Translations under genes and position numbers: made by a program
In this document: piece after piece, positions 5,461 to 29,536 of the stretch
Position numbering within the stretch: the stretch's first letter is position 1
Layout: each line of letters starts with the position of its first letter
From: Acutalibacteraceae bacterium
GTDB lineage: Bacteria > Bacillota > Clostridia > Oscillospirales > Acutalibacteraceae
Length of the DNA stretch: 64,000 bases
Reading direction: 5' to 3'
Assembly (NCBI GenBank): GCA_045592625.1
Contig: JAZNVC010000001.1
Coordinates: 136,825 to 200,824, forward strand
Notes under the pieces: model-generated
Seen by the model: only the letters and a program-made list of their open reading frames with translations
Told to the model about the DNA's origin: nothing
Database searches by the model: none

Positions 5461-5494
5461 ATAATCGCATCGAATTTTCGATGCGATTATTTTT
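5461..5494. terminator. Bidirectional terminator between the ABC operon and immA
   Basis: Hairpin aatcgcatcga-attt-tcgatgcgatt followed by a T-run. Confidence 0.7.
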
Positions 5495-5915
5495 CACAGT
5501 AATATTTTAAAACCTTTTCCATATAATGAACAGGTACCGAAAAATACTCGGCAAGGTCGCTTGTTGTGTAAACACCGTTTTTTATGGCTTCCTTTAATAG
5601 TTTAATGGGAACAAGAAAGTGAATAGCCCATTTTTCCGCTTTGTGCTCGATTTTTTGTCTTTCAAAATCAGAGCAGTCGCCGTCATAAAAGCCGCCGGTG
5701 GCAATATGCCCCATTTCGTGAGCAAGTACTACCCGTTCTTCACATTCTCTGCCGAAAACGGCAGGGTCAATACCAATATAACAGTCGTCACCAATATTAA
5801 CGGTGACGGCTTTATTTTTAGGAAGATTAAAGCTCATTACCTTTATACCTTCCTCCTCAGCAAGACGGTAAAGTTCACTAAGGGTTTTGCTCTTTATCGT
5901 AAATGAATTTTGCAT
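5487..5915 (-). CDS. ImmA/IrrE-family zinc metallopeptidase
   Basis: 142 aa with an HEMGH (HExxH) motif. It lies immediately downstream of, and overlaps, an XRE repressor gene, which is the classic ImmR/ImmA layout. Confidence 0.8.
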   Translation of the reverse strand: MQNSFTIKSKTLSELYRLAEEEGIKVMSFNLPKNKAVTVNIGDDCYIGIDPAVFGRECEERVVLAHEMGHIATGGFYDGDCSDFERQKIEHKAEKWAIHFLVPIKLLKEAIKNGVYTTSDLAEYFSVPVHYMEKVLKYYCEK

Positions 5916-6207
5916 AGCGTTTCACTTCTTCCCACATTTCGTCGGTTACGTCTTGGCTTCCTCCGAAAAGAGCAACCTTTAACTGATTTTCAATAATTTT
6001 TGAGTTTTTGCCTTCTAAAAGAAATTCTACACTAACCGAAAAAAATGAGGCAATTTTAGATAAAACTGAAGCGGAAAGGGCTTTGCTTCTGCCCATCTTA
6101 TAGTCTGAAAGGGTAGCACGGGGAATGGCACAATCTCTGCAAAGGTCGGTAACCGTTACTCCTTTATCCTTGCAAAGCGTTTCGATTCTTTCGTAAACCG
6201 TATCCAT
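5878..6207 (-). CDS. XRE-family helix-turn-helix transcriptional repressor
   Basis: I chose the start MDTVYERIETLCKDKGVTVTDLCRD at 6207 (RBS AGGTGGA). The 6327 start in the ORF track would run through the promoter region. HTH_3-type motif is present (TDLCRDCAIPRATLSDYKMG). Confidence 0.85.
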   Translation of the reverse strand: MDTVYERIETLCKDKGVTVTDLCRDCAIPRATLSDYKMGRSKALSASVLSKIASFFSVSVEFLLEGKNSKIIENQLKVALFGGSQDVTDEMWEEVKRYAKFIYDKEQNP

Positions 6208-6244
6208 AAATTTTCCACCTTTAGTAAAAATTTTTTGTAGGCAC

Positions 6245-6273
6245 TTGACAATTACGGATTTCCGTAATATAAT
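6245..6273 (+). promoter_or_regulatory. Consensus sigma-70 promoter of the Zn-ribbon/sigma-like/dinB operon, with a candidate operator in its spacer
   Basis: TTGACA (6245-6250), 17 nt, TATAAT (6268-6273). The palindrome ATTACGGA-TT-TCCGTAAT (6251-6268, 16 of 18 positions symmetric) fills the spacer and overlaps the first base of the -10 box. Confidence 0.7.
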
Positions 6274-6298
6274 AGAACATACGTTCGAGGACAAAAAC

Positions 6299-6327
6299 AT
6301 TATATAACCTTTTGTACTTGAAGTCAA
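6299..6327 (-). promoter_or_regulatory. Divergent promoter of the XRE-ImmA operon
   Basis: On the minus strand: TTGACT (6322-6327), 17 nt, TATAAT (6299-6304). Its transcript passes through the 6251-6268 palindrome before the XRE start. Confidence 0.6.
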
Positions 6328-6354
6328 GAAAAATTTTTACGGAGGTAAACAGCA

Positions 6355-6720
6355 TTGTATTATTGTTCGGATTGTCGGATGGAGTTTCAGTTCGCAAAGG
6401 TTTATTTTGAACCGACACCGAAGGGGAGTGAAAGACTTTTGCTCTGTCCATACTGTTCAGGGATGAATTACAGTGAAAAGCGGGGCAATTACTGCAGTTA
6501 TTGCGGACGTCCTACAGGACTGAGTGTCAGAAGATACTGTAGCGAGAGCTGTAAATCACAGGGCGAAAAAATGTTTGCAAAGCAAAAGGAGCAAGAAGAA
6601 AACAGAAGAAACAGCCCTTTATATAAAGCGGTTAATGAGGTGGACACCTACAATAAATACCACGGCTGTAATTTGAGCTACGGACAGTATTACGCATTAA
6701 AAGGAGCAGGGATTATATGA
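6355..6720 (+). CDS. Cysteine-rich zinc-ribbon protein, function unknown
   Basis: TTG start 9 nt after a GGAGG RBS. Four CxxC-type pairs are present (CSDC, CPYC, CSYC, CSESC). It is the first gene of the dinB operon. Confidence 0.6.
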   Translation: MYYCSDCRMEFQFAKVYFEPTPKGSERLLLCPYCSGMNYSEKRGNYCSYCGRPTGLSVRRYCSESCKSQGEKMFAKQKEQEENRRNSPLYKAVNEVDTYNKYHGCNLSYGQYYALKGAGII

Positions 6721-7052
6721 GGGAAATGTCGGTGGATGAAAAAAGAATTTATCTTGAACAGTATCCTCTCACATTGGCTGTTATTAACCGTTGCTATTTA
6801 CTGTCGGCTAAAAATGCCGATAAAAGCGAAAATTACAAAAGAAAAATGAATGAAGCGGTACTTCTTAGGGATTTTATTGAAAACGATATAGAAAAAATCG
6901 TCGATAAAGTAGAAAGCGAGGTATTGGCTCAAAAATATCTTTGCGGAAAAACCTTGGAAGAAACAGCCGTACTGCTTAACTACAGCAAACGGCAGGTGGA
7001 AAGAATTCATTTAAACGCACTGGAACATTTGGCACCGTCATACATTTGTTAA
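6717..7052 (+). CDS. Small sigma-70 region-4-like HTH protein (phage/ICE-type transcriptional regulator)
   Basis: 111 aa. The C-terminal KTLEETAVLLNYSKRQVERIHLNALEHL resembles a sigma region 4.2 HTH. The start overlaps the upstream stop (ATGA). Confidence 0.6.
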   Translation: MREMSVDEKRIYLEQYPLTLAVINRCYLLSAKNADKSENYKRKMNEAVLLRDFIENDIEKIVDKVESEVLAQKYLCGKTLEETAVLLNYSKRQVERIHLNALEHLAPSYIC

Positions 7053-7064
7053 AGGAGAATAAAA

Positions 7065-8282
7065 ATGGAACGTACAATACTTCATTGTGACCTTAATAAC
7101 TTTTTTGCATCGGTAAGTCTTCTTTATAATCAGACCTTTTACGGACAACCTGTTGCAGTTGCAGGAAGTGTGGAACAACGTCACGGAATAATACTTGCAA
7201 AAAATGAAATAGCTAAAAAATTCGGAGTAAAAACAGCAGAACCTATATGGAAGGCAAAGCAAAAATGTGCGGGACTGATTATTTTACCGCCTATTTACGA
7301 TAAGTACGAAGAATTTTCCATAAAGGCAAGAGAAATTTATCACCGCTATACCGATATGGTAGAGCCCTTTGGAATGGACGAATGTTGGCTCGACGTTACG
7401 GGAAGTAATCTTCTTTTCGGTGACGGTAAAACCATAGCCCAAAAAATAATGCGTGATATAAAAGAAGAACTGGGCATAACCGCCTCAGTTGGAGTAAGTT
7501 TTAATAAGGTTTTTGCAAAGCTTGGAAGCGATATGAAAAAGCCTGAAGGACTAACGGTCATAAGCAAAGAAAATTTTAAAGAAAAAATATATTCTCTGCC
7601 TGTAAGCGATCTTCTTTTTGTGGGAAACAGCACAGCGTCAAAACTTATGAGCAGAGGAATATTTACCATAGGCGATATAACCCTTGCGGGAGATGAAATG
7701 CTGAGCAAAATCCTTGGTAAAAACGGCATAATGCTTAAAAAATGTGCTATGGGACTGGACGACAGTGCGGTGATTACTCCAAAGAAGACAGACCACCCCA
7801 AAAGCGTGGGACGTTCACGCACCCTATCGGAAGATTTTGAGGATTTGGATGAGGTTTTCAGAGAACTGCTCTTTTACGGAGAAGAAATCGCCGAAAATTT
7901 GAGGGAAAAAGAGGTTTATGCAACAGGAGTCACCCTTATTATAAGAGATACCGATTTAAAAACCAACGAATATGCAATAAGGATAGATTCGGGAACACAA
8001 ACGGGAATTACTCTGGCACGAACGGCAATGAATCTTTTTAAAGAGCACGGGAAACTGCCCTGCCGAAGTGTAGGACTAAGGGCAACAAGACTTAAAGAGG
8101 GAGACGCAAATATACAGCTTGATATGTTTAGTTCTTGCGATGATGAGGATAAACTTTTAAAAATAGAACAGCAAATAAGCAGTATTTGTGCCCGTTTCGG
8201 AAAAAATGCCGTAGTAAGAGGCTCTCTGCTTTTTAAAAACAAAAACCTCTCTCCCGGCTTTAAGCCACCCTATTGCAAATAA
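7065..8282 (+). CDS. dinB: Y-family DNA polymerase IV
   Basis: 405 aa. N-terminal ILHCDLNNFFASV, plus the SIDE-like MDECWLDVTG and GVS.NK..AK.GSD motifs. Confidence 0.93.
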   Translation: MERTILHCDLNNFFASVSLLYNQTFYGQPVAVAGSVEQRHGIILAKNEIAKKFGVKTAEPIWKAKQKCAGLIILPPIYDKYEEFSIKAREIYHRYTDMVEPFGMDECWLDVTGSNLLFGDGKTIAQKIMRDIKEELGITASVGVSFNKVFAKLGSDMKKPEGLTVISKENFKEKIYSLPVSDLLFVGNSTASKLMSRGIFTIGDITLAGDEMLSKILGKNGIMLKKCAMGLDDSAVITPKKTDHPKSVGRSRTLSEDFEDLDEVFRELLFYGEEIAENLREKEVYATGVTLIIRDTDLKTNEYAIRIDSGTQTGITLARTAMNLFKEHGKLPCRSVGLRATRLKEGDANIQLDMFSSCDDEDKLLKIEQQISSICARFGKNAVVRGSLLFKNKNLSPGFKPPYCK

Positions 8283-8314
8283 GAGATTTTTATTTATTAT
8301 TCATATTAAAAAAA

Positions 8315-8338
8315 CCTCTGTGCATACCGGCACAGAGG
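8315..8338. terminator. Hairpin 1: terminator for dinB, and a stronger one on the minus strand
   Basis: cctctgtgc-ataccg-gcacagagg. An A7 run lies upstream, which reads as T7 on the minus strand. tcaaatttt follows downstream. Confidence 0.7.
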
Positions 8339-8344
8339 TCAAAT

Positions 8345-8366
8345 TTTCGTTTATTACCCACATAAA
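8345..8366. repeat. Left inverted repeat, copy 1 (IRL1)
   Basis: tttcgtttattacccacataaa is a perfect 22-nt reverse complement of 9802-9823. Weaker similarity extends outward (ggtca...). Confidence 0.9.
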
Positions 8367-8380
8367 TGAAGCACAAAAAC

Positions 8381-8404
8381 CCTCCGTGCATATCGGCACA
8401 GAGG
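8381..8404. terminator. Hairpin 2: duplicated copy of hairpin 1
   Basis: cctccgtgc-atatcg-gcacagagg with one mismatch. aaaaa lies upstream, which reads as a T-run on the minus strand. Confidence 0.55.
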
Positions 8405-8410
8405 TAAAAG

Positions 8411-8435
8411 TTTCATTTATTACCCACATAAACGA
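8411..8435. repeat. Left inverted repeat, copy 2 (IRL2)
   Basis: tttcatttattacccacataaacga matches the reverse complement of 9799-9823 at 24 of 25 positions. Confidence 0.9.
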
Positions 8436-8482
8436 CAGCGAAAACAGATGCATTGGTAAAATATTCCGTAGTCGCGGGTAAC

Positions 8483-8511
8483 ATTATGACACAATAATGC
8501 CGATTTGTCAA
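8483..8511 (-). promoter_or_regulatory. Near-consensus extended -10 promoter inside the IR-bracketed segment, pointing outward to the left
   Basis: The minus strand reads TTGACA (8506-8511), 17 nt, TGtCATAAT (-10 at 8483-8488). No gene lies downstream in this orientation; the transcript meets only IRL2, hairpin 2, IRL1 and hairpin 1. Confidence 0.6.
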
Positions 8512-8633
8512 TACAAAATGCATAATTTTGCAGATTTTTTTCAGTATTGACACAAATTTTAATACATTTGGGATTATTTATGGTCAATTTTGCCGTCAAA
8601 ATATACTTATAGCACGAAGGGATGTAAAGAACA

Positions 8634-9734
8634 GTGTCACGAAGAGGAGAATGTATCTACAAAAGGAAAGATGGTAGATGGGAGGCTCGGTATGTTAAGG
8701 AATTAGGTATCGACGGAAGGAAAAAATATGCCTCAATTTATGCTCCGACATATAAAGAAGCTAAAGAAAAACAAATGTACGCTATGCATAATATTGCTAA
8801 AAAATTAACAATATCGGCAAAATTATGCATAAAAGATATTACTTATGAGTGGCTTTTAAGTATTAAAAGTCGAATTAAGCCGTCCAGTTATATTAAATAC
8901 GAAAATATGTGCAAAAATCATATAATTAAGAATTTGGGAAATATTCCTCTTAATGATATAAACTCGGTGACAGTGCAAAAGTTCACAATGTTTCTTAAAG
9001 AAAACGGACGAATAGACGGAGGTAAACTATCTGATAAAACAATAAACGACATACTTATTATATTAAGCCTTATATTCAGATATGCCGAAGAACATCATTC
9101 TGCAAATCTTCCTCATATAAAAGGGGTAAGGCAAGAGAAAAAAGAGGCAAGAGTGCTTTCAAACGAAGAACAGAAGCGGCTTTGTGCCTATTGTATTAAT
9201 GACACCGATAGTTATAAATTTTCGATTTTACTTGCACTTTATACAGGAATCAGAATAGGAGAATTATGTGCTCTTAAATGGCAGGACATAACCGACACCT
9301 ATATAATAATAGATAAAACTATGCAGCGTCTTAAAACCGATAACGGAGAGACAGACATTTTTGTCACCAGTCCTAAAAGCGATTGTTCTAAGCGAATAAT
9401 ACCGTTGCCTGAATTTTTAAAAGAAACCATAAATAAAAGGCGAAAGGATGACGGATATGTACTTGCAACCGCCAGAAGTCCTTACTGTGAACCTAGGACA
9501 ATGCAACATCGATTTAAAGAAACGGCAGAACTCCTAAACTTGGAGGGGGTTACCTTTCATACCTTAAGGCATACATTTGCTACTCGTTGTGTAGAAGCAG
9601 GTTTTGATATTAAAACTCTTTCGGAAATACTTGGGCATTCTGACGTTAAAGTAACCTTAAACAGATATGTTCATTCTTCCTTTGAATTAAAGCAAAAAAA
9701 TATGCAAAAGCTGATGTTTATAGATTTTGTTTAA
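8634..9734 (+). CDS. Tyrosine site-specific recombinase (phage-integrase family)
   Basis: 366 aa with a GTG start. N-terminal arm-type motif YKRKDGRWEARY. C-terminal catalytic region has R..GE..AL.W, HTLRHTFAT and LGHSDVKVTLNRYVH (the R-H-R-Y set). Confidence 0.9.
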   Translation: MSRRGECIYKRKDGRWEARYVKELGIDGRKKYASIYAPTYKEAKEKQMYAMHNIAKKLTISAKLCIKDITYEWLLSIKSRIKPSSYIKYENMCKNHIIKNLGNIPLNDINSVTVQKFTMFLKENGRIDGGKLSDKTINDILIILSLIFRYAEEHHSANLPHIKGVRQEKKEARVLSNEEQKRLCAYCINDTDSYKFSILLALYTGIRIGELCALKWQDITDTYIIIDKTMQRLKTDNGETDIFVTSPKSDCSKRIIPLPEFLKETINKRRKDDGYVLATARSPYCEPRTMQHRFKETAELLNLEGVTFHTLRHTFATRCVEAGFDIKTLSEILGHSDVKVTLNRYVHSSFELKQKNMQKLMFIDFV

Positions 9735-9746
9735 ATGGTCAAAAAA

Positions 9747-9792
9747 ATGGTAAGAACAGAGAGAAGCTCTCTTGTTTTCTTACCATTTTTTA
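9747..9792 (+). terminator. Terminator after the recombinase gene
   Basis: ggtaagaacagagag..ctctcttgttttcttacc hairpin followed by a long T-run. Confidence 0.7.
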
Positions 9793-9798
9793 TTTTTT

Positions 9799-9823
9799 TC
9801 GTTTATGTGGGTAATAAACGAAA
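9799..9823. repeat. Right inverted repeat (IRR)
   Basis: tcgtttatgtgggtaataaacgaaa is the reverse complement of IRL1 and IRL2 (see those entries). Confidence 0.9.
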
Positions 9824-9917
9824 TGACCGATTATTCAATTTGTTATTTATTTTTCCCTTAAAATGAAAATTTAAACAATATAAAAATATCTGCTGCATAC
9901 AGGAGTGAACTTCAGAA

Positions 9918-10448
9918 TTGAATAAAAAACCTAAAATTATTCTGAAAAGTATATCTGCAACTATAGTTTCCCTTGTTGTAATCTTTGCAGTGCTTATTGC
10001 AGGAGTGCAAATCTTCGGCATAAAGGTTTATACCGTTTTATCGCCTTCAATGGAACCTGAATATAAAACAGGTGCCGTTATATATGTTAAAAAGGTTGAC
10101 CCAAAGGAACTTGAGGTTGGAGACGTTATAACCTTTTCGTCGTTAAATCAAACAACGGTAACACATAGAATTGTGGGCGTAGAAGAAAAAAACGGAGTTC
10201 TTTATTTTGAAACCAAGGGCGACGCCAATAAAAGTGCCGATAGCGGCAGGGTGCATATGAATAACGTGCTGGGCAAACCCATATTTAAAATTTCCTATTT
10301 AGGTTATGCTGCAAGTTTTATTACAAAAAAACCCGGAATCTATTTAGGTATTGCTATAGGAATTATTCTTACAGTACTTGTATTTGTGATTGACTTTATT
10401 ACGGGTGATGAACCCGATAAAAATAAAAAAAGGAGAAAAACAAAATGA
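9918..10448 (+). CDS. sipW: Signal peptidase I, archaeal/ER type (SipW-like)
   Basis: 176 aa with a TTG start after an AGGAG RBS. N-terminal TM segment, catalytic-Ser box LSPSMEP, His box VTHRIV, a GDAN box, and a C-terminal TM segment with a basic tail. Confidence 0.85.
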   Translation: MNKKPKIILKSISATIVSLVVIFAVLIAGVQIFGIKVYTVLSPSMEPEYKTGAVIYVKKVDPKELEVGDVITFSSLNQTTVTHRIVGVEEKNGVLYFETKGDANKSADSGRVHMNNVLGKPIFKISYLGYAASFITKKPGIYLGIAIGIILTVLVFVIDFITGDEPDKNKKRRKTK

Positions 10449-11086
10449 AAAAAATGAAGACAGTACTGCTGTGCATTGGTTTGAGTTTATTGGTTTTTGC
10501 TTCGGTAATGGGGACACTTTCCTATCTTACAGATACAGAAGAAGTTGTTAACACCTTTACCGTAGGTAATGTCGATATAACTCTTGATGAAGCAGATGTA
10601 GATGAACTTGGTGCAGTAGTGGGCACAGAAAGAGTTAAGGAGAATGAATATCACTTAATTCCCGGCGGGGTTTATGTAAAAGACCCAACCGTAACCGTTA
10701 AAAAGGGCAGTGAGGCTTCATATATCCGTATGCTTGTTACCATAAGCGATATGGCTGATATCAAATCGGTTTTCGGAAATGATTTTCTTCCTGAAAATTA
10801 CGTAGAAGGCTATGACAAGGCTGTTTGGAAGTGTGTAAAAATTACCGATAACGGCAATGATACCGCCACCTATGAATTCCGCTATAAAGAATCTGTAGAT
10901 AAGGTTAGTGCAGATAAGGTTTTGGAACCTCTTTTCAAAAAAATAAAGGTTCCCGGTGAAATAAACGGCGAAGAACTTGCCAAAATAAGCGAAATGAAAA
11001 TTTCTGTAGTAGGTAACGCTATACAGAAGGCAGGCTTTGAAAACGAGGATGCTGCTTGGGCAGCTTTTGACCTTCAGATGAATTAA
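10445..11086 (+). CDS. TasA/camelysin-like secreted protein with a SipW-cognate signal peptide (P1)
   Basis: 213 aa. N-terminus ..FASVMGTLSYLTDTEEVVNTFTVGNVDITLDE. The start overlaps the sipW stop (ATGA). Confidence 0.75.
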   Translation: MKKMKTVLLCIGLSLLVFASVMGTLSYLTDTEEVVNTFTVGNVDITLDEADVDELGAVVGTERVKENEYHLIPGGVYVKDPTVTVKKGSEASYIRMLVTISDMADIKSVFGNDFLPENYVEGYDKAVWKCVKITDNGNDTATYEFRYKESVDKVSADKVLEPLFKKIKVPGEINGEELAKISEMKISVVGNAIQKAGFENEDAAWAAFDLQMN

Positions 11087-11102
11087 GAAAGGCGGCAAAA
11101 AT

Positions 11103-11711
11103 ATGAAAAGAAAGCTTTTTACAAAACAGGGTATCTTTAAAACCGTACTGTTAATGCTCAGCGTAATAACACTTGTGTTCAGTATTGTTAGCGGTACTTT
11201 AGCATGGCTTGTTGCCGAAACAAAACCCGTTGTAAATACCTTTACATATGGCGATATCAATATCAATTTAGAGGAAAGCGATACAAACGACGGTGACGGA
11301 GACCCTTATACCAATACCTATCGTATGGTACCGGGAAATCAAATAGAAAAGGACCCAACCGTAACGGTAAAAAAAGACAGCGAAGACTGTTGGCTTTTTG
11401 TGAAAATTGAAAAATCGGTTGACCCCGCTAAATTTGATGATTTTATGGAGTTTACCATTGCTGACGGCTGGACACCCTTAAAGGATGTTGACGGCGTTTA
11501 CTATAGAGCAGTTGACAGTAGTAAGGAGGATATAAAATTCCCCGTACTTAAAGATAACAAAGTAAAGGTTAAAGAAGATGTTACAAAGGAAATGTTTAAT
11601 ACACTTTCCGAAATGCCTACCCTTTCCTTTACCGCTTATGCAGTTCAGCGTGACAGCGAAATAACCGAAATAGATTCAGCCGAAAAGGCTTGGACTATAA
11701 CACAAAAATAA
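11103..11711 (+). CDS. TasA/camelysin-like secreted protein with a SipW-cognate signal peptide (P2)
   Basis: 202 aa. N-terminus ..SGTLAWLVAETKPVVNTFTYGDININLEE. It shares KDPTVTVKK.SE with P1. Confidence 0.75.
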   Translation: MKRKLFTKQGIFKTVLLMLSVITLVFSIVSGTLAWLVAETKPVVNTFTYGDININLEESDTNDGDGDPYTNTYRMVPGNQIEKDPTVTVKKDSEDCWLFVKIEKSVDPAKFDDFMEFTIADGWTPLKDVDGVYYRAVDSSKEDIKFPVLKDNKVKVKEDVTKEMFNTLSEMPTLSFTAYAVQRDSEITEIDSAEKAWTITQK

Positions 11712-11733
11712 TATTTTAAAGGAGTAAAAGAAA

Positions 11734-13293
11734 ATGAAAAACATTAAAAAATCACTTTTAATGGGACTTAGTTTTGTGCTTGTGGCTGCTCTTGCCATGG
11801 GCGGAACTTTGGCTTACCTCACCTCTACCGATGATGACGTTAACGTTATGACACTTGGCAAAGTATCTATTACTCAGCACGAGTATCAGCGCGTTGTAAA
11901 CGCAGACGGTACTTACGCTACTGCAACTATCGACAATCAAACAAGCTATGTGCTTGAGAAATTCGTTCAGGCTAAGCCCTTGCTTCCCATTGTTGGCGAC
12001 CCAAGTCAACCCGGTGACAGTGCAGCCTACGCAGGTTATGATACCATCCCTGTTCGTATGTCTCAGGTAGGTTCATACGGCGGTATGGACGTATTTGCAG
12101 GCAAAAACGCTCAGGATAAGTTCGTTACCTTAGAAAACACCGGCAAGACTGATGCCTTTGTTCGCACCCTTGTTGCAATCGAAATCGGCAACGGTAATGC
12201 ATCCTTGATCGGTACTTCTTATCACAAAACTTGGACTAAGAATTCTATTGGTACCATCGTAATCGACGGCAACAACTATGCTTTGACCGAGTATGTTTAT
12301 GCTGGTGCGAACGGTGTGCGTCACGAAAATGGTATCCTCCCTGCAGGCGATACCTCTTATCCCAACCTTTCTCAGGTTTACATCAAACACAACGCTACCA
12401 ATGAGGACTGCGAAGCACTTGACGGCAACGGCAACGGCACCCTCGATATCCTCGTTCTTTCTCAGGCTGTTCAGGTTGCAGGCTTTGCTGATGCTGAAAC
12501 CGCTCTTGACACCGCATTTGGTGACATTACTACCACCAATCATCCTTGGAGTGTAAACGCTCCGGCTATTCCCACGGTTGTTTCTACAGCTGATGAATTA
12601 GCTACAGCACTTGCAAACGGCGGCGAGGTTATTTTAACTAAAGATATTGATGCCGATGCTGATACTACTATCACCATTCCCGCAGGTGTTTCTACCACAT
12701 TGAACCTCAACGGCAAGACCCTTGATTTTGTTACCGATAATGCTGACAAGAATAATGACGGAGGAGTAACAAGCGCAGACAATGAGGTTGCAATTGACGT
12801 TAGAGGTACTTTAAATGTTAAGAACGGTACTATCACAACCAAGCACACTGCTGAAAACTTTGCTTGGAACGCTTGTACCGAGGTGTTTTATGTAGCATTT
12901 AACGGCACTTTGAATATTGAAAATGCAACTATTGAAAACCTTGGCGGTTCTGATATGGCCTTTGCAATTGACCTTGTGAACGCAACCAATGTAACCCTTA
13001 ACATTAGCAACTCTACCATCAAGTCTTCTTACATTCCTGTTCGTGTATTTAACAATGGTTCCGGTATGAACAATGTTACTATCAAAGATAGCACACTTGA
13101 CGGTGTAAGTCGTGCATTCTGGGTACATATCTATTCGAACAAAGATAATGGTGGCAGAGGCGTAAAAGATGCAACCCTCAACCTCGATATCTTTGGTAAC
13201 GGCAACACATTCAATGCATCAAATCCGAATAGAATTATTGAGTTCGGCTTTGAAGATGAAATCAATTTTGATGCCAACGGCAATCAACTTTAA
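11734..13293 (+). CDS. Fusion protein P3: SipW-cognate signal, TasA-like N-module and a parallel beta-helix-like C-module
   Basis: 519 aa. N-terminus GGTLAYLTSTDDDVNVMTLGKVSI. C-terminal repeats of the NGT(I/L)..xN.T(I/L) type (NVKNGTITT, FNGTLNIENATIEN, VTLNISNSTIKS, NNVTIKDSTLDG). Confidence 0.75.
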   Translation: MKNIKKSLLMGLSFVLVAALAMGGTLAYLTSTDDDVNVMTLGKVSITQHEYQRVVNADGTYATATIDNQTSYVLEKFVQAKPLLPIVGDPSQPGDSAAYAGYDTIPVRMSQVGSYGGMDVFAGKNAQDKFVTLENTGKTDAFVRTLVAIEIGNGNASLIGTSYHKTWTKNSIGTIVIDGNNYALTEYVYAGANGVRHENGILPAGDTSYPNLSQVYIKHNATNEDCEALDGNGNGTLDILVLSQAVQVAGFADAETALDTAFGDITTTNHPWSVNAPAIPTVVSTADELATALANGGEVILTKDIDADADTTITIPAGVSTTLNLNGKTLDFVTDNADKNNDGGVTSADNEVAIDVRGTLNVKNGTITTKHTAENFAWNACTEVFYVAFNGTLNIENATIENLGGSDMAFAIDLVNATNVTLNISNSTIKSSYIPVRVFNNGSGMNNVTIKDSTLDGVSRAFWVHIYSNKDNGGRGVKDATLNLDIFGNGNTFNASNPNRIIEFGFEDEINFDANGNQL

Positions 13294-13336
13294 TTCATAA
13301 AAATTTACCCATTCCGGAAAGGAGAACATACATATA

Positions 13337-14896
13337 ATGTCTAAACTTAAAAAGGTACTCTTAATGTGTACCGCATATGTTCTGGTAGCCGCACTGGCTA
13401 TCGGCGGAACCTTAGCTTACCTCACAAGCACTGATGATGACGTGAACGTAATGACACTTGGTAATGTATCAATTAAGCAGCATGAGTATGAGCGTGTTGT
13501 GAACGCTGACGGCACCTTTGCTACCGACACCATTGACAATGTAACCAGCTATGTATTAAAAGACTTTACACAAGCAAAACCACTACTTCCTTCTGCTATA
13601 GACACAACTACCTGGGAAGGCTGGGATTGGGATTCCACCGTTGTACGTATGACTCAGGTAGATTCTTACGGTTATATGCAGGTATTTAAGGCCGCTTCCA
13701 ATGCGCAGGATAAATTTGTTACCGTAGAGAACACTGGCGATACCGATGCTTACATCCGTACTCTCGTTGCTATTGAAATCGGTTCTACTGACGGTAGTTT
13801 GATTGGTACTTCTTATCACTCTACATGGACTAAGAACGAGGTAGGTACTATCGTGGTCGACGGTAACACCTATTTTGTATTTGAATATGTGTACAACGGG
13901 GCTAACGGTACTCTCCATGATAATGGTATCCTTCCCGCTGGCGACACCGCTTACCCCAACCTTTCTCAGGTTTACATCAAGTCTGCGGCCACCAACGAGG
14001 ACATGGTTGCCCTCGACGGTAACGGCAACGGCACCCTCGATATCCTCGTTCTTTCTCAGGCTGTTCAGGTTGCAGGTTTTGACAATGCACAGACTGCTCT
14101 GGACACCGCTTTTGGTAAGTCCTCTGAAAAGGCTGTTGAGTGGTTCGGTGGCATTGCGATCCCCGATGTTGTTGCATCTGCAGACGAAGCTTATGATGCC
14201 TTTAGTGCATTTGACCAGTCCGGAAAAAGCGGTTCGGTTATTTTAAACTCGGATATTAATACCGCTGATGCAGATAGCCGCTGGTCCTCGAACAGAGAGT
14301 ATGCTCTTAGAGCGGCAGGCACTGACGTTACGTTCGACCTCAACGGACATACGGTAAACCACGATACCGCTTACCAAAATGGTAAAAATACCGGTTATAC
14401 CTACCTCTTTACAACGGCTTATAACGGAAAATTGACCGTTAATGGTGAAGGCGGCTCCATCTACTCCGAAAACGCTGATGGTTTTACCTGTATCTTCTAT
14501 GCACAGGGTCCCAGCGAGATCGTGATCAATGGTGGTGAATATCACGCTGTTGCCGGTGTCCCTGTATGGGCGGGAAATGGCGCCAAGGTAACAATAAACG
14601 GCGGTTCGTTCACTTCGAGCAAGAGTGGTAACGATCAGGAGATGATCTATTCCAGCGGTGGTGTAATTGATATCTACGGCGGATTTTTCCATAGTGATTG
14701 GGAGAATCGTCCCGTTAATGTTGCGGACGCTAACCGTAGCACAGGTTTTATCAATATTTACGGCGGAACCTTCGTAAACTTTGATCCTTCCACCGGCGGT
14801 AACGATCCTGGCAATATCAGAGTTATGGAAGGCTACAAGGTCGTTTCCGAAGCTCAGGCAAACGGTGATGTCTGGTACACCGTGGTTGCTGAATAA
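13337..14896 (+). CDS. Fusion protein P4: paralog of P3 with a different beta-helix-like C-module
   Basis: 519 aa. The first ~270 aa align with P3. The C-terminal module has INGG.F-type repeats (VINGGEYH, TINGGSFT, DIYGGFFH, NIYGGTFV). Confidence 0.75.
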   Translation: MSKLKKVLLMCTAYVLVAALAIGGTLAYLTSTDDDVNVMTLGNVSIKQHEYERVVNADGTFATDTIDNVTSYVLKDFTQAKPLLPSAIDTTTWEGWDWDSTVVRMTQVDSYGYMQVFKAASNAQDKFVTVENTGDTDAYIRTLVAIEIGSTDGSLIGTSYHSTWTKNEVGTIVVDGNTYFVFEYVYNGANGTLHDNGILPAGDTAYPNLSQVYIKSAATNEDMVALDGNGNGTLDILVLSQAVQVAGFDNAQTALDTAFGKSSEKAVEWFGGIAIPDVVASADEAYDAFSAFDQSGKSGSVILNSDINTADADSRWSSNREYALRAAGTDVTFDLNGHTVNHDTAYQNGKNTGYTYLFTTAYNGKLTVNGEGGSIYSENADGFTCIFYAQGPSEIVINGGEYHAVAGVPVWAGNGAKVTINGGSFTSSKSGNDQEMIYSSGGVIDIYGGFFHSDWENRPVNVADANRSTGFINIYGGTFVNFDPSTGGNDPGNIRVMEGYKVVSEAQANGDVWYTVVAE

Positions 14897-14923
14897 CTTG
14901 ATTTAGTCTTGTCTTCATAAAGT

Positions 14924-14984
14924 CCACCCACTCCTCTCCGTGGGGAGTGGGCGGCAATCAAAGTTCCTTTTGACTCTTTGATTG
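14924..14984 (+). promoter_or_regulatory. Two adjacent stem-loops between P4 and P5 without a T-tract (candidate processing, stability or attenuation element)
   Basis: Hairpin A: cccactcc-tctccgtg-ggagtggg (14927-14951). Hairpin B: caatcaaag-12 nt-ctttgattg (14955-14984). Confidence 0.4.
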
Positions 14985-15025
14985 CTATATACAAAAAACA
15001 AATATAAAAGGAGAAGATACATATA

Positions 15026-25400: not shown

Positions 25401-25781
25401 ATTGACGTCAAGGAAAACGATAAGGACGGTAAGATAGTATTTAAAACCCTTACCTTTAAGGAAGCGGGAACCTATAATTACACCGTTAAGGAAAAAATAG
25501 ACCAAACCGAAAACGGAATGGAATATGATACCAGAGAATATAGTGTAATCATTGAAGTTGCCGATAACGAAAAGGGTAGTTTAGTGGCTACGGCTCAGTT
25601 CAAAGTAGGCGATGAAGAACAAAGAAGTGTTGAATTCGTCAATAAATATAAAGAGCCTCTACCCACTCCTGACACATCAGATACAAATCACATTGCAGTG
25701 CTCAGTGTTATTGCAGGTGTTTTGGCTCTGGCAATTATAATTCTTCTTATTTACAAAAATAAAAGAAATAAAACTGATTAA
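19407..25781 (+). CDS. Giant surface protein: signal peptide, vWA domain, seven pilin isopeptide-type repeats and a C-terminal TM anchor
   Basis: I prefer the ATG at 19407 (RBS AGAGG), giving 2124 aa. Signal peptide ..MNVGAAA. MIDAS motif ILVLDLSGSM. Seven repeats of the type (Y/H).Y.(I/V/L).E....G..YD...Y.V.V.V. C-terminus is PLPTPDTSDT, a TM segment, then KNKRNKTD. No LPXTG motif is present. Confidence 0.85.
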   Translation: MKNTKNLTFKKLLSVFLAVVMVFSMIPMLVMNVGAAADFTKVTDPSTVNDWKAFFGPKTENTTWAGGVWSDKSVFSTVADYIAATDEVEGNDFNLSIDNKNFLVALSTIASSKSVEGYSTLPTDTILVLDLSGSMDVDQGTDPYVTMVNSANSAIEELLSLNANNRVGVIAYSGNTNQNDAATSSTATVILPLGRWEKGIDSSNNRVYLVSSWRQNNSTRNGVKVASGVTGTIAEGVKSTFSTNNSKQVTGGTYTQNGIYKAQQMFSEVTYTTVQEGIQAGAKRKPVMVIMSDGCPTIASTNYTNIGTSNSGDGTETNYGSNGIAFMTQLTAAWARDKIEEKYDSEPLVYTLGLNVGNKAPALSLLDPSNNTSTDSYWTTFKGLKDKTNKTMTVQIRVNGTENKTITYTAPVNEERGWSEDYVTKYFGANSVSSLNKAFEDIVEQIVIQSLYYPTLVSDGNSIDHDGFLEFDDYIGKNMEVKAVKGIQLGSKLYDGSTLAKMIYQGGMGTVDAPTEAGNNMVWAVKSRMGIEDTSVARELIGKAYASGQLYYHINEDDGTVEYSNYIGWYADKDGKYVAFWDGEDASLNAVPENIKEKVVYANKSYGYYDAVGEGHRKTDMMYATILVRTTVNGEAQGIADATETGDTRVIGKIPASLIPLVEYDIQLNGTDPLDPASLTIKGATAPSRLLYEVGLSSKIDLLDIENTAPDKLVKDADGNYVFYTNQWDDIESDGYQYKYSENHNTISFFEPSKENERYYYNIDTPIYTDTNGTLYNSSSAPTYNVNKPLYHRTVIYKVEGNKTVAEWQYEQISEHVLTHEGDIAKKQDNTWYVTAGTIHHYFGDYVMEKAKNETGTIKCSDMPFVHDLEVGVNHNEYHVDSFLGNNGKLTFDAYEGIKISKTSDATITDKTLDFEFNVTADLNGELTLIKENALGERTESEINFNGAYTVTLKHGESFWLLGEALIGKTVTVKENTQGKDYKVLSVNSDKNLEEAVINVASGVIASAQFINTIPQEGDVVIAKTVVSSIDGHFDDSFSFEIALEGAQAQKSYDLVFSNGTTDTITDAGKVITLKHGENVAIRKLEENVVVKVKEINIPKGFAVDETEKSVTVEAGELHYISFTNTYSASPTLPADINITINKNLLDDNGNAADWNGKFAFKVQYFDGNDYVDIKDAEITYSKNSANSVGVDILENKTYDAVGDYYYRIVEVVDEDNVKAGIVYDTTYCRFVVRVADDGEGKLYISEVANISDTQISGKNVTAEFNNNYKVNGAAEVIIDINKTVKNIHNQTANLLPAGYSFSLYPADEDFNITGSAVAVSPETAAAGTARISLVFDKIDLAGTHNYVLKENGGNIQGVGYTDKEYHVTVVVGHSNGYYNISVKLMDENEKVIKETSASAREGNIVAVAEIDGADFENTFTPGEVILTTDLTANKFLVGRDIVNNDNFRFGLFKADSSFNAGDMLKEATADMNGLISFGKISYNDEGKRYYVVREIIPSEAVNNKHNGITYDTKEYHISVDVTGDSTTGKLSCAYEITLNGQPVNVITFNNVYETEPVNATINGTKTLLGGIRKLQSRAFSFELLKDGQVIDTVHNGLPTDDYIAPFSFNLSYTEAGVYTYTVREKLPKNIDANGKYAGVKWDQNVYPVTVTVTDNGTGALTAEVDYNNSSNAVAFSNTYSVEAVKETISLTKKLLGDKIEKYVGEKAFSFQLYSATLDDNAVTPVNLIDTASNDANGNVTFGEITYNTIGGYYYIIKEAVPEEKDELMVYDSAYFIVEIDVTDNLSGQLVTTKKITKVLNSEKTEETQIIFNNEIKPEKQSVNITGEKQYNKNLKDGMFTFELYQALKDADGNVNAVGEAVLTVSNIGKNFKFEDVNLTDDEGNMAKTEYLTYSNEGEYYYVVKEVLPEGAEDGKKDGIKYDTKEHVVKVTVRKVLDDTGRDVLSVQVESDDNGLIVVNEYSTLDAQYTIEAKKVLEGRELEKGEFEFALYDKNGAEIDVKENDKDGKIVFKTLTFKEAGTYNYTVKEKIDQTENGMEYDTREYSVIIEVADNEKGSLVATAQFKVGDEEQRSVEFVNKYKEPLPTPDTSDTNHIAVLSVIAGVLALAIIILLIYKNKRNKTD

Positions 25782-25894: not shown

Positions 25895-27457
25895 TTGAAG
25901 AGAGGGAAAAACTTGACAAAGAATAAAAAGGTGAACAAAAAACTTGTTGCTTCGCTTATAATATTATTTTTAGGAAATTTGCTTTTCTTCTTTACGGTAT
26001 GGCTTTTAAGAAAATATGACCACATCTATCTTGATCAGGTGCTTTTTCAGTTAAAATCTCCCGCAAACGGTGCTAATCGCAGCTTGGCGGGAAGTGTTGT
26101 TATGCAGGTGGGAGTATATCCAGTTTTATTTACCGCCCTTGAAACTTTTTTATATCTTTTTTTGGGCGGCTTTATTAAAAAATTCAAAAAAAATGAAAGA
26201 TATGCCAAATACTGTCTTGGTAAATTTTGTAATTTTATAAAAAGGGTTGCTATGCCTGTTGCACTTTCTACCCTTCTTGTTTCGGTAACCTTTTTTTCGG
26301 CAAAGCTTGAAGTGGTAAGTTATATAAGCGTTGCTTCTACCGAGTCGGATTTTATTATTCAAAACTATAAAAACCCAAGTGAAGCAAAAATCACCTTCCC
26401 TGAAAATAAACGCAATCTTATATATATAATGCTTGAATCTATGGAATGTACCTATGCCGATACTGCGGCAGGGGGCAATATAACCGATAATTTTATTCCC
26501 GAACTTAAAAAACTGGCTGATGATAACGTGAATTTTTCCAATACCCAGGAATTCGGCGGTGCTCTTTCTTATTCGGGAACAACCTGGACGTCAGCAGCTA
26601 TGGTGGCACAGACTTCAGGTATGCTTATAAAGGTGCCCATTGCAAGTGAAACCTACGGCGGAGAAAATTCCTTTATGCCGGGTGTAACCACTCTGGCGGA
26701 AATTCTTAAAAAAGAGGGGTACAGTCAAACCCTTTTAGTAGGAAGTGATGCCGATTTCGGCGGCAGAAAGACCTATTTTTGTGAGCATGGCGATATGAAT
26801 ATCGTTGATATAAATTCTCTTAAAGAGGAAAAAAGATTGCCTAAGGATTATAGGCAATGGTGGGGCTTTGAGGACGATAAGCTGTTTGATTTTGCAAAGG
26901 AAGAAATAGAAAAACTGTATCAAAGCGGTAAACCCTTTAATTTCACGATGCTTACTGCCGACACCCATTTTCCCGACGGATATGAATGTAAAGACTGCAA
27001 AAACAAGTGGGATAATCAGTACGCAAACGTGCTTTCCTGTTCTTCAAAAAGGGTTTTGGAATTCGTCCAATGGATTAAAGAACAGCCTTTTTATGAGAAC
27101 ACAACCATAGTAATATGCGGAGACCATTTGACTATGGACCCCGAATTTTTAAAGAGTATAGATAAGAATTATACCCGCACGGTTTATAACTGCTTTATAA
27201 ATGCATCTGTAGTGCCGGTTAAGGAAAAGAGCCGCAAATTCGGCACCTTTGATTTATTCCCCACAACAGTTGCCGCTTTGGGTGCAACTATCGAGGGAGA
27301 AAGGTTGGGACTTGGAACAAATCTTTTCTCAAATCTGCCCACCTTAACCGAGGAGTACGGGTTTGAAACCCTTGACAGCGAGTTGCAGAAAAAATCACAG
27401 TTCTATAACGAGCAGATACTTGAAATGGAAAGCCCTGCAATATTTTTAAAGGAGTAA
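25895..27457 (+). CDS. LTA-synthase / sulfatase-family membrane protein
   Basis: 520 aa. N-terminal TM segments precede an extracellular sulfatase-like domain (MLESMECTY, SGTTWTS, TADTHFPDGY, GDH). The exact start is uncertain: TTG at 25895, with alternatives at 25913 and 25931. Confidence 0.7.
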   Translation: MKRGKNLTKNKKVNKKLVASLIILFLGNLLFFFTVWLLRKYDHIYLDQVLFQLKSPANGANRSLAGSVVMQVGVYPVLFTALETFLYLFLGGFIKKFKKNERYAKYCLGKFCNFIKRVAMPVALSTLLVSVTFFSAKLEVVSYISVASTESDFIIQNYKNPSEAKITFPENKRNLIYIMLESMECTYADTAAGGNITDNFIPELKKLADDNVNFSNTQEFGGALSYSGTTWTSAAMVAQTSGMLIKVPIASETYGGENSFMPGVTTLAEILKKEGYSQTLLVGSDADFGGRKTYFCEHGDMNIVDINSLKEEKRLPKDYRQWWGFEDDKLFDFAKEEIEKLYQSGKPFNFTMLTADTHFPDGYECKDCKNKWDNQYANVLSCSSKRVLEFVQWIKEQPFYENTTIVICGDHLTMDPEFLKSIDKNYTRTVYNCFINASVVPVKEKSRKFGTFDLFPTTVAALGATIEGERLGLGTNLFSNLPTLTEEYGFETLDSELQKKSQFYNEQILEMESPAIFLKE

Positions 27458-28204: not shown

Positions 28205-29536
28205 ATGGGGAAGTTGACAAGAAAACAGAAAATTTTAAGACGTAATTTGTTTTTGTGCCTTTGTGCAAGTGTACTTTGCCTTATAATTTCTATTGCGGGT
28301 TGGGGTATAAGTAAACTTATCGGTTCTGGCGGAGAGGATTTATCCTTAGATAAGGACAGCGTAGCAAGTCAGCCTGAAGAACCTTATGTAGTATCATCTG
28401 CAAAGGTGCTTAATACGGGGGATATACTTATACATTCTCCCTTGCTGACCGCCGCAAAGGAAAGCGACGGTTATGACTTTTCACCCCTTTACAGAGAGGT
28501 TTCCTCTTATTTTAACGAGGCTGACCTTACTATAGCAAATCTTGAAGTTACTCTTGGCGGCAGTGAATCGGGCAGTTTTAAGGGCTATCCCGCATTTAAT
28601 ACGCCCGATGACCTTATTGATGATATAAAGGCAGCAGGGGTGGATATGCTTCTTACCTCCAATAACCATTGCTATGATACGGGATTATACGGGCTAAAAC
28701 GTACGGCAAGGGTGCTAAAGGAAAAAAATATGCCCTTTATCGGCACAAGGGAAGCATCAAATGAGGCTCTTTATACAATAAAGGACGTTAATGACATTAA
28801 AATCGGTATGGCTTGCTATACATATGAAAATGTTTATCAAGGAGGAGGAACAAAATCTATAAACGGCAGAATTGTCAGTAGCGATGCGGCTGACTTGCTT
28901 TCTTCCTTCTGCTATGAAAAAATTGATGAGTTCTATGTTGAAGCCGAGAATGTTATTAGTGATATGAAGCAAAACGGTGCCGAGGCAATAGTTTTTTATA
29001 TGCATTGGGGCAACGAATATCAGCTTAAACAAAATACTTGGCAAACTAAAATTGCCCAAAAACTTTGCGACCTTGGAGTTGACGTAATCGTAGGGGGACA
29101 TCCCCACGTTATTCAGCCTATTGAGCTTATTACCTCTACCGACGGCCAAAGAAAAACGGTCTGTCTTTATTCTATGGGAAATTCCGTTTCTAATCAGCGG
29201 CTTAGCCTTCTTTATACCGACTGCCCCACAGGACACACCGAGGACGGTATGCTTTTCTACTATACCTTTGATAAATACAGCGATGGTAAAGTGGTTTTAA
29301 GCGGAGTTGATATTATTCCTGCTTGGGTGGAAAAGACAGGAAGCGGCAGTAATGCAGAATATATTCTTCACGCCTTGACTGATGAAAATGCCTTTTATAA
29401 TAAGGGACTGTCTTCTTCAACAGGAAAAAATTCCTATAACCGCACAAAAGCAATCGTTTCAAAAGGTCTTACCGAATGTCAGCAGTATTTAGGCTGTGAG
29501 ATACGTTTTAAAGAAAATACAGGTTTAAATCCATAA
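28205..29536 (+). CDS. CapA-family (PGA_cap) metallophosphatase-like envelope protein
   Basis: 443 aa. N-terminal TM segment, then NLE....G, SNNHCYD and GGHPHVIQP motifs. Confidence 0.75.
   Translation: MGKLTRKQKILRRNLFLCLCASVLCLIISIAGWGISKLIGSGGEDLSLDKDSVASQPEEPYVVSSAKVLNTGDILIHSPLLTAAKESDGYDFSPLYREVSSYFNEADLTIANLEVTLGGSESGSFKGYPAFNTPDDLIDDIKAAGVDMLLTSNNHCYDTGLYGLKRTARVLKEKNMPFIGTREASNEALYTIKDVNDIKIGMACYTYENVYQGGGTKSINGRIVSSDAADLLSSFCYEKIDEFYVEAENVISDMKQNGAEAIVFYMHWGNEYQLKQNTWQTKIAQKLCDLGVDVIVGGHPHVIQPIELITSTDGQRKTVCLYSMGNSVSNQRLSLLYTDCPTGHTEDGMLFYYTFDKYSDGKVVLSGVDIIPAWVEKTGSGSNAEYILHALTDENAFYNKGLSSSTGKNSYNRTKAIVSKGLTECQQYLGCEIRFKENTGLNP

Follow-up and report, generated by a model that had tools for sequence, protein, structure and literature searches.

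A candidate invertible promoter cassette encoding its own integrase-type tyrosine recombinase beside a sipW-tasA-like fibre operon of an Acutalibacteraceae bacterium

Several bacterial phase switches invert a short DNA segment located next to the genes for a surface structure. In Escherichia coli, fimS is a segment of 314 bp bordered by 9-bp repeats, with the recombinase genes outside; the recombinases FimB and FimE are two-domain enzymes of about 200 amino acids (aa) that depend on IHF and Lrp and have no arm-binding domain. The Hin protein of Salmonella is a serine recombinase requiring a Fis-bound enhancer, and the output of the cwpV switch of Clostridioides difficile is controlled by a terminator. 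Here we describe a locus found in a window of 64 kb (the whole stretch of DNA that was analysed) from an Acutalibacteraceae bacterium (assembly GCA_045592625.1, contig JAZNVC010000001.1); all coordinates are positions in this window. The segment 8345-9823, located between a dinB/IMS-family polymerase gene and a candidate fibre operon that begins with sipW, contains a tyrosine recombinase gene flanked by inverted repeats, and a first-pass annotation had proposed it as an ON/OFF switch. From the sequence, we estimate at roughly 0.87 the probability that this segment is a self-contained invertible promoter cassette acting as a phase-variation switch of the sipW-tasA-like operon, in which case the TasA-like surface fibres would be produced or not according to its orientation.

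As in fimS and in the MrpI system of Proteus MR/P, a tyrosine recombinase would flip a promoter segment beside a surface-fibre operon, and the predicted switching logic is that of fimS, of MR/P and of the invertible promoters of C. difficile and Bacteroides. The locus differs from fimS in the length of the segment (1.4-1.5 kb), in its 25-bp sites and in its 366-aa three-domain enzyme encoded inside. The recombinase gene and an outward promoter travel inside the invertible segment, as in the Hin/hix system, whereas the enzyme of the window is a tyrosine recombinase with the R-K-H-R-H-Y set. The RecV switches of C. difficile (cwpV, flgB and cmrRST) resemble the locus in being tyrosine-recombinase inversions upstream of surface-structure operons in Clostridia. 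Hin illustrates the occasional presence of the recombinase within the invertible segment, and RecV is a single distant enzyme serving several short switches (PMC5903667). In contrast to RecV, every cassette of the family presented below comes with an enzyme and a site sequence of its own; a test for a master recombinase, made in the 64-kb window, found the site confined to the locus and the enzyme adjacent to it. The phase-variable type I hsdS loci of Streptococcus pneumoniae and Listeria also have a tyrosine recombinase gene among the inverting segments, but those inversions shuffle coding sequence for specificity whereas that of the window would reorient a promoter. The nearest published finding in Clostridia that we located comes from the gut community hCom2, where the 'inverton group 139' is statistically linked to a nearby tyrosine recombinase ('group 35') and shifts orientation in culture (PMC11892184). 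Compared by description only, its examples are of about 250 bp and their recombinase is nearby, not inside. The literature searched contains no link of sipW or TasA to an invertible element and no description of the cassette family. New is the arrangement itself: a promoter cassette, common among gut Clostridia, whose inversion is predicted to be catalysed by the integrase-type tyrosine recombinase that it encodes, and which is combined here with a terminator-site module.

The cassette is delimited by one right site (IRR) and two left sites (IRL1 and IRL2), listed in Table 1. All three have the sequences and the positions reported in the first-pass annotation, and they were also recovered as inverted pairs by a repeat search. 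Compared with the reverse complement of IRR, IRL1 displays the announced perfect match of 22 nt (8345-8366), or 24 identical positions out of 25 when 8345-8369 is considered, and IRL2 also agrees at all but one of the 25 positions. When the entire window was scanned for the 23-nt core with a tolerance of 3 mismatches, these three sites alone were retrieved, each with at most 1 mismatch, and the same threshold gave 0 site in 100 dinucleotide-preserving shuffles of the window. Two further properties had escaped the earlier description. On the one hand, each site is composed of the 8-bp inverted arms TCGTTTAT and ATAAACGA around an asymmetric 7-bp spacer GTGGGTA, which reads as the classical core-site layout of tyrosine recombinases. 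The direction of a site is set by the asymmetric spacer alone; as the spacer reads one way to the left of the gene and the other way to its right, the flanking sites are truly inverted. On the other hand, IRL1 and IRL2 belong to two directly repeated, tandem units of 66 nt (8309-8369 and 8375-8435) with 89% identity, both of which contain a minus-strand terminator hairpin followed by one site.

The strongest evidence for inversion is provided by the orthologous loci. The close homologues of the recombinase (63-93% identity), retrieved by a protein search, are all located in the same dinB|cassette|sipW locus. The orientation of the segment in related assemblies had been set beforehand as a check, and both orientations are found: the cassette has the orientation of the window in L002-L006 and L008, and it is flipped in six loci (L001, L007, L009, L010, L023 and L091). 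The last of these was the single contig retrieved when metagenome contigs were scanned for the 23-mer core, a yield too small for counting orientations in populations. Between L006 and L007, two metagenome contigs from two samples of one study that encode an identical recombinase protein, a segment of 1423 bp aligns at 100% identity in one orientation and both flanks align at 100% in the opposite one, the 26-bp repeat being precisely the stretch shared by the alignments. This inversion is recent, because the 2.4 kb compared are 100% identical save for the flip. In L001, which has 91% DNA identity to the window, 8345-9823 is co-linear whereas 7000-8291 and 9798-11000 are reversed, and these alignment limits place the breakpoints exactly at IRL1 and IRR. 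The earlier prediction of inversion instead of excision is in agreement with the breakpoints of both comparisons, which fall at the repeats, precise inversion being the only rearrangement seen. It had been made dependent on the conservation of the repeats around orthologous recombinases, and the repeats are kept in all of them: the 23-bp core shows 0-1 mismatches in every orthologue, while the neighbouring DNA is only about 76% identical. Exact-sequence look-ups of the window recombinase, of the first TasA-like protein and of DinB returned no identical record.

These data also bear on the possibility that the two orientations are old fixed inversions or assembly errors, with no ongoing switching and a recombinase that is inactive or otherwise employed. 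Most of the comparisons do span different species or strains, and three distant members of the family display one orientation in all the assemblies examined. This explanation is nonetheless very unlikely in view of L006 and L007, which differ over 2.4 kb by the flip alone. An assembly artefact was rejected for this pair, the 26-bp repeat being much shorter than the k-mer length inferred from the k141 names of the contigs; if the k141 prefix is the k-mer length of the assembler, as we presume from its use in MEGAHIT names, a misjoin at the repeat is impossible because the k-mer is far longer. Moreover, the invariance of the site core amid flanks of about 76% identity, together with that of the catalytic residues, argues for selection for function.

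The recombinase matches the Pfam families PF00589 (Phage_integrase, 101.5 bits for a cut-off of 27.1) and PF14659 (SAM-like, 52.9 bits, above cut-off). These are the only domains above cut-off, and the Pfam scan of the recombinase revealed no serine recombinase domain. No curated NCBIfam model was above its cut-off for this protein, the FimB/FimE-type invertase model NF007371 giving 21.2 bits for a cut-off of 222. When 35 homologues were aligned, no variation was seen at R207, K248, H309, R312, H335 or Y345, and the enzyme is predicted to be catalytically intact. In the AlphaFold2 model (predicted local distance difference test score of 84.9), the residues 8-57 form a three-stranded sheet and a helix. 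This N-terminal region contains many of the invariant residues of the alignment and has a weak match to the Pfam family AP2 (E 0.0011). The best matches, in sequence and in structure, are Tn1549 Int and full-length lambda Int, the alignments with lambda Int covering 355-394 columns. The enzyme thus looks as if composed of three domains, an N-terminal beta-sheet domain of arm-type specificity, a SAM-like core-binding domain and the catalytic domain; sequence and model together make it look like a heterobivalent integrase of the lambda/Tn916/Tn1549 type that is used as an invertase.

The integrases of lambda, Tn916 and Tn1549 have an N-terminal beta-sheet domain like the one predicted for the window enzyme, and the cassette has a repeated motif near both ends, as arm-type sites would be. 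Four GTCAA-type motifs at about 8338, 8507, 8584 and 8594 had been suggested as arm-type sites in the first pass. All are present, but the suggestion is supported only for the copies at 8584 and 8594, which are conserved, and a fifth copy located right after the stop codon of the recombinase (9735-9742) had been overlooked. The copy at 8507 was rejected as it is the -35 box of the promoter P described below, and that at 8338 was rejected as it belongs to a non-conserved terminator flank. The invariant non-coding blocks of the orthologues are the core sites, P, TTATGGTCAAnTTTnCCGTCAAA (8578-8600) and AAATGGTCAAAAAAATGGTA (9733-9752, at the stop codon). The same motif was looked for in the wider family, using 61 non-redundant cassettes for the motif and promoter statistics and 57 for the direction of the flanking genes. 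In 41 of the 61 cassettes, the 110 nt that precede the gene contain GTCAAA on the recombinase strand, compared with 5.6% of random 110-nt windows taken from the same loci, and the motif occurs 2-28 nt past the stop codon, in the spacer between stop codon and repeat, in 39. It is the commonest hexamer at both inner ends, where the reverse orientation is almost absent. The (G/C)GTCAAA motifs are therefore likely candidates for arm-type sites recognized by the N-terminal domain of the recombinase. Because they are located only on the inner side of the core sites, both ends would be comparable to attL- or attR-like halves, and the reaction would be reversible since inversion would regenerate the same substrates.

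The relationship with integrases raises the question of a small mobile element, either a tyrosine-recombinase transposon or an integrative remnant, whose terminal repeats would be the sites and for which the neighbourhood of sipW would be incidental. The enzyme is structurally closest to the Tn1549 and phage lambda integrases, and homologous cassettes are found beside many unrelated genes in different Clostridia, with two of them in one metagenome-assembled genome (MAG; L038 and L045); from these unrelated neighbours and from the two copies per MAG it follows that the cassette must have spread or duplicated at some time. We consider such an element extremely unlikely at this locus. The lambda, Tn916 and Tn1549 integrases serve mobile DNA with directly oriented attachment (att) sites, whereas the core sites of the window are inverted, the locus is chromosomal and syntenic, and inversion is the sole product seen. 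The same dinB|sipW junction is present in every orthologue, down to 63% protein identity. A pair of direct-repeat att sites, named beforehand as the sign of simple integration, was found at none of the orthologous loci, where neither an empty site nor a target duplication was seen. In addition, the window has one copy only, and the conserved outward promoter and flanking terminators are not needed by a transposon.

Concerning the non-coding parts of the cassette, the outward promoter that had been announced inside the segment corresponds to P, a near-consensus match at 11 of 12 positions that is conserved base for base in the orthologues. P is the best promoter-like site of the region and points toward dinB in the window. 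Leftward from P, the order is IRL2, the hairpin t2 (8404-8381), IRL1 and the hairpin t1 (8340-8313). The fold of t1 has a free energy of -18.6 kcal/mol on the minus strand, where it is followed by U7, and of -18.1 on the plus strand. A hairpin abuts the left site at this position in all orthologues, and t1 could be a bidirectional terminator that ends dinB transcription and stops transcription from P in the OFF state. The hairpin t2 is always downstream of P and of the inner site; it is conserved in L001 (-17.6 kcal/mol) and L010 (-15.6 kcal/mol), and the changes in loop and stem preserve the pairing across three lineages. The recombinase terminator, just before IRR, is likewise conserved in the orthologues. 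All three structures are predicted to be much more stable than their shuffled controls, and a U-run comes after each. The view that sipW has no promoter of its own was borne out by a consensus scan, in which no plus-strand promoter-like site with at least 9 of 12 matches was detected in 9824-9917.

These elements suggest the following mechanism. P would be a strong sigma-70-type promoter reading outward through the left site, and the on-board recombinase would recombine IRR with IRL1 or IRL2. As the sites are inverted (spacer GTGGGTA on one side and TACCCAC on the other), the outcome would be inversion and not excision. The window would represent the OFF state, because P faces two terminators and because sipW is shielded from recombinase transcription and devoid of a detectable promoter: transcripts directed toward the 3' end of dinB would be stopped by t2 and t1, the recombinase terminator insulating sipW. 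Recombination of IRL2 with IRR would leave some 160 nt, free of any terminator, from P to sipW downstream of it, which is the predicted ON state. Recombination of IRL1 with IRR would also make P face sipW, but t2 would be carried along and a weak or OFF output is predicted. We infer from this arrangement that the recombinase is the catalyst, that P is active, that the operon depends on P and that the outputs of the configurations are graded.

Table 1. Positions in the 64-kb window of the cassette elements, of the candidate target operon and of the conserved upstream genes
Feature	Position	Strand	Description
IRR, right recombination site	9799-9823	+	TCGTTTATGTGGGTAATAAACGAAA = TCGTTTAT-GTGGGTA-ATAAACGA-AA
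IRL1, outer left recombination site	8345-8369	-	TTTCGTTTAT-TACCCAC-ATAAATGA
IRL2, inner left recombination site	8411-8435	-	TTTCATTTAT-TACCCAC-ATAAACGA
Tyrosine recombinase gene	8634-9734	+	366 aa, GTG start, inside the cassette
Outward-facing promoter P (predicted)	8511-8483	-	TTGACA, 17 nt, TGT-CATAAT; 11/12 plus extended -10 TG
t1, hairpin abutting IRL1	8313-8340	.	A-run before, T-run after (minus strand)
t2, terminator-like hairpin between the tandem left sites	8381-8404	-	followed by GUUUUUG; -16.0 kcal/mol, z-score -4.7
Recombinase terminator	9742-9798	.	hairpin of at least 15 bp with A-run and T-run flanks; -22.8 kcal/mol, z-score -5.6
Candidate arm-type sites	8580-8600	+	ATGGTCAA-N5-CCGTCAAA; invariant in orthologues
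Candidate arm-type site	9735-9742	+	ATGGTCAA; right after the stop codon, same orientation as 8580-8600
Conserved 14-mer	8518-8531	+	ATGCATAATTTTGC; adjoins the -35 box of P
Leader between IRR and sipW	9824-9917	+	94 nt; AGGAG ribosome-binding site at the end
Candidate target operon	9918-18490	+	sipW, two TasA/camelysin-like genes, four larger open reading frames (ORFs)
sipW	9918-10448	+	TTG start at 9918; NCBIfam SipW, Pfam Peptidase_S26
Two TasA/camelysin-like genes	10445-11086, 11103-11711	+	Pfam Peptidase_M73
Four larger ORFs	11734-13293, 13337-14896, 15026-16837, 17063-18490	+	the last with an isopeptide pilin (FctA) domain
dinB/IMS-family polymerase gene	7065-8282	+	upstream of the cassette
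IrrE/ImmA-like M78 peptidase	5487-5915	-	
Cro/C1 helix-turn-helix (HTH) protein	5878-6327	-	
Zinc-ribbon-like ORF	6355-6720		121 aa
Sigma-70 region-4 protein	6717-7052		111 aa

The two left sites given in the first pass both exist but are not equivalent, since an inversion at the outer site would carry the terminator t2 along with the promoter. With A and B designating IRL1 and IRL2 (direct repeats of each other) and C designating IRR, four configurations can be written. S1, or A-t2-B-[P<, rec>]-C, is that of the window. S2 would be produced by recombination of B with C, P then facing sipW with no terminator between. S3 would be produced by recombination of A with C and would have P facing sipW with t2 between. 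In S4, P would face dinB with t2 on the sipW side, and this configuration could be reached from S2 by A with C, or from S3 by recombination of the left site with B. The arrangement S3 is seen in L001 and L010, which also have three sites, in the order promoter, inner site, t2, outer site and sipW; S2 and S4 were not observed for the window lineage. If t2 terminates efficiently, only one configuration out of four (S2) would be fully ON. Tandem sites are present in about 10 cassettes of the family. In L045, an unrelated cassette at 44% identity whose sites differ in sequence, the promoter side likewise shows a site, a strong terminator and a site in succession. The sandwiched terminator is not universal since in L023 two sites are 43 nt apart without a hairpin between them. 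We propose, tentatively and as a rather doubtful extension, that the locus belongs to an undescribed large family of gut Clostridia in which an integrase with arm-type sites works as invertase, and that the terminator-plus-site module (8375-8435) makes of it here a four-configuration device. If this four-state model were true, the geometry of the sites would bias a population toward OFF, or toward graded output, with no directionality factor.

The two terminator-plus-site units of the window share one hairpin type, CCTCTGTGC...GCACAGAGG, and are 89% identical, whereas L001, L010, L009 and L006 have another type next to dinB, CTCTTAAC...GTTAAGAG. The lineage of the window seems to have replaced or duplicated the unit, and an unequal exchange between direct sites on sister chromosomes is one possible route. 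Another repeated element of the cassette is the 14-mer ATGCATAAT(T/A)TTGC, which occurs three times, at 8518-8531, at 8784-8797 and inverted at 8817-8831. Relative to the recombinase start, these copies are found at about -115 and, inside the recombinase ORF, at +150 and (inverted) +183. The positions are conserved in L001, L009 and L002, and partly in L010 and L023. This 14-mer could be an operator or the site of an accessory protein.

A wider family of cassettes was detected by a scan using one genome per species, which retrieved at least 80 loci with homologues at 41-63% identity, almost all of them at 41-56%. Among the matches listed, the hosts belong to the Oscillospiraceae, Lachnospiraceae, Ruminococcaceae, Christensenellaceae and others, and include the isolates Blautia celeris, Yeguia hominis and Ruminococcus sp. 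YE282. A repeat pair with at least 20 matched bases surrounds the gene in at least 50 loci (50 of the 80 among the matches listed), whereas not so much as a 16-base repeat pair was detected in 88 control windows displaced by 3 kb. One repeat precedes the gene by 160-310 bp and the other follows it by 60-150 bp (278 bp in one locus), delimiting cassettes of about 1.35-1.7 kb. The sites have the layout TTTCGCAGAGT, 5-7 nt, ACTCTGCGAAA, and their spacers and arms differ between cassettes. At 23 loci without flanking repeat pair, nothing convincing was found when a small inverton was looked for beside the gene, several of these loci being cut by contig ends near the expected repeats.

An outward promoter with at least 10 of 12 matches is present in 44 of the 61 cassettes, compared with 3.9% of random windows, and is usually located 42-87 nt from the repeat. 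At the threshold of at least 11 of 12, the promoter is found on the outward strand in 23 of the 61 and on the recombinase strand in none, the value for random windows being 0.8%. In 47 of the 57 cassettes a gene departs from the flank that follows the recombinase stop codon. The departing genes encode small HTH and TetR regulators, S-layer-homology, BspA-LRR and SipW proteins, sugar transferases, and SpaA, VWA, cohesin and dockerin proteins; the neighbours of the family overall are surface, adhesin, exopolysaccharide and small regulator genes. Seven further cassettes have sipW and tasA-like neighbours (L035, L050, L060, L067, L077, L085 and L086).

Some features of the family concern individual genomes or assemblies. 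The cassettes L038 and L045 come from the same MAG (RGIG8567), so that one genome can hold several cassettes with differing site spacers and arms, and this difference in spacers may prevent exchanges from one cassette to another. In some cassettes, one end has two or three sites in tandem: L062 has a 73-nt repeat containing two sites, and L060 and L089 are further examples. Many homologues are known only from contigs of 1.38-1.45 kb, which is the length of a cassette (P0009, P0041, P0050, P0054, P0057, P0088, P0099, P0101, P0104 and P0107). These contigs could reflect assemblies that break at repeats present in both orientations, i.e. heterogeneity within a sample.

It is extremely unlikely that the cassette flips with another output, which could be an antisense transcript of dinB or regulation of the recombinase itself, sipW being expressed from an undetected promoter: P does face dinB in the window orientation, consensus scans miss promoters other than those of sigma-70 type and a small sigma-70 region-4 gene is located upstream at 6717-7052, but the two successive terminators between P and dinB indicate insulation instead of antisense control, the genes departing in 47 of the 57 family cassettes are on the side that P would face after inversion and have functions typical of phase-variable surface components, and the seven further members linked to sipW and tasA repeat the association.

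Several points weigh against a phase-variation switch of the fibre operon. In the species of L002 and L006, the spacer between the repeat and sipW measures 219 bp and is AT-rich, and sipW may have its own promoter there. The inversion is seen among orthologues, and ongoing switching in the strain of the window is a prediction. Promoter activity, terminator efficiency and the dependence of the operon on P are predictions. In L001 and L010, a terminator-like hairpin is located between P and sipW, and a promoter that faces sipW is on that account not necessarily ON. Finally, the distant members P0076, P0100 and P0094, available in 4-9 assemblies each, always have one orientation; inversion is therefore demonstrated only for the dinB|sipW group, and for the rest of the family it is argued from the architecture.

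TasA-like fibres processed by SipW build the biofilm matrix and mediate adhesion. If the fibre operon is switched as proposed, uncultured gut Oscillospirales (Acutalibacteraceae or Ruminococcaceae-like) would possess a heritable and reversible fibre switch, a surface phase variation relevant to colonisation, as in Bacteroides, among the dominant but little-studied Clostridia. The cassette is compact, with sites, promoter, insulating terminators and enzyme in 1.4 kb. The default limit of PhaseFinder for the distance between repeats is reportedly about 750 bp; if this holds, the class may be under-counted, since the segment exceeds the lengths usually handled by inverton finders. The locus would also be a natural case of an integrase-type tyrosine recombinase, with predicted arm binding, that performs inversion. 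The site spacers differ between cassettes, which may therefore not cross-react, and synthetic biology in Firmicutes might draw orthogonal invertases from the family.

Within the candidate operon, the first TasA-like protein begins with a signal peptide of SipW type, which the N-termini of all ORFs after sipW resemble (tblastn; NCBIfam cognate_SipW), and terminator-like sites are located past the operon at 18711-18730 and 18994-19014. The wider surroundings are chromosomal, with htpG and an ABC transporter. Upstream of the cassette, a module at 5487-8282 is conserved in all orthologues and looks like a damage-inducible regulator plus translesion-polymerase unit. After the fibre operon, an AT-rich gap of 900 bp with several promoter-like sites precedes an ORF of 2130 aa (19389-25781), whose product has a VWA domain together with seven isopeptide domains of Spy0128/FctA type and which probably represents a giant adhesin gene distinct from the operon. 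The adhesin genes are followed by those for a sulfatase-family protein (25895-27457) and for a capsule-synthesis protein of the PGA_cap family (28205-29536), and the region is a cluster of cell-surface functions.

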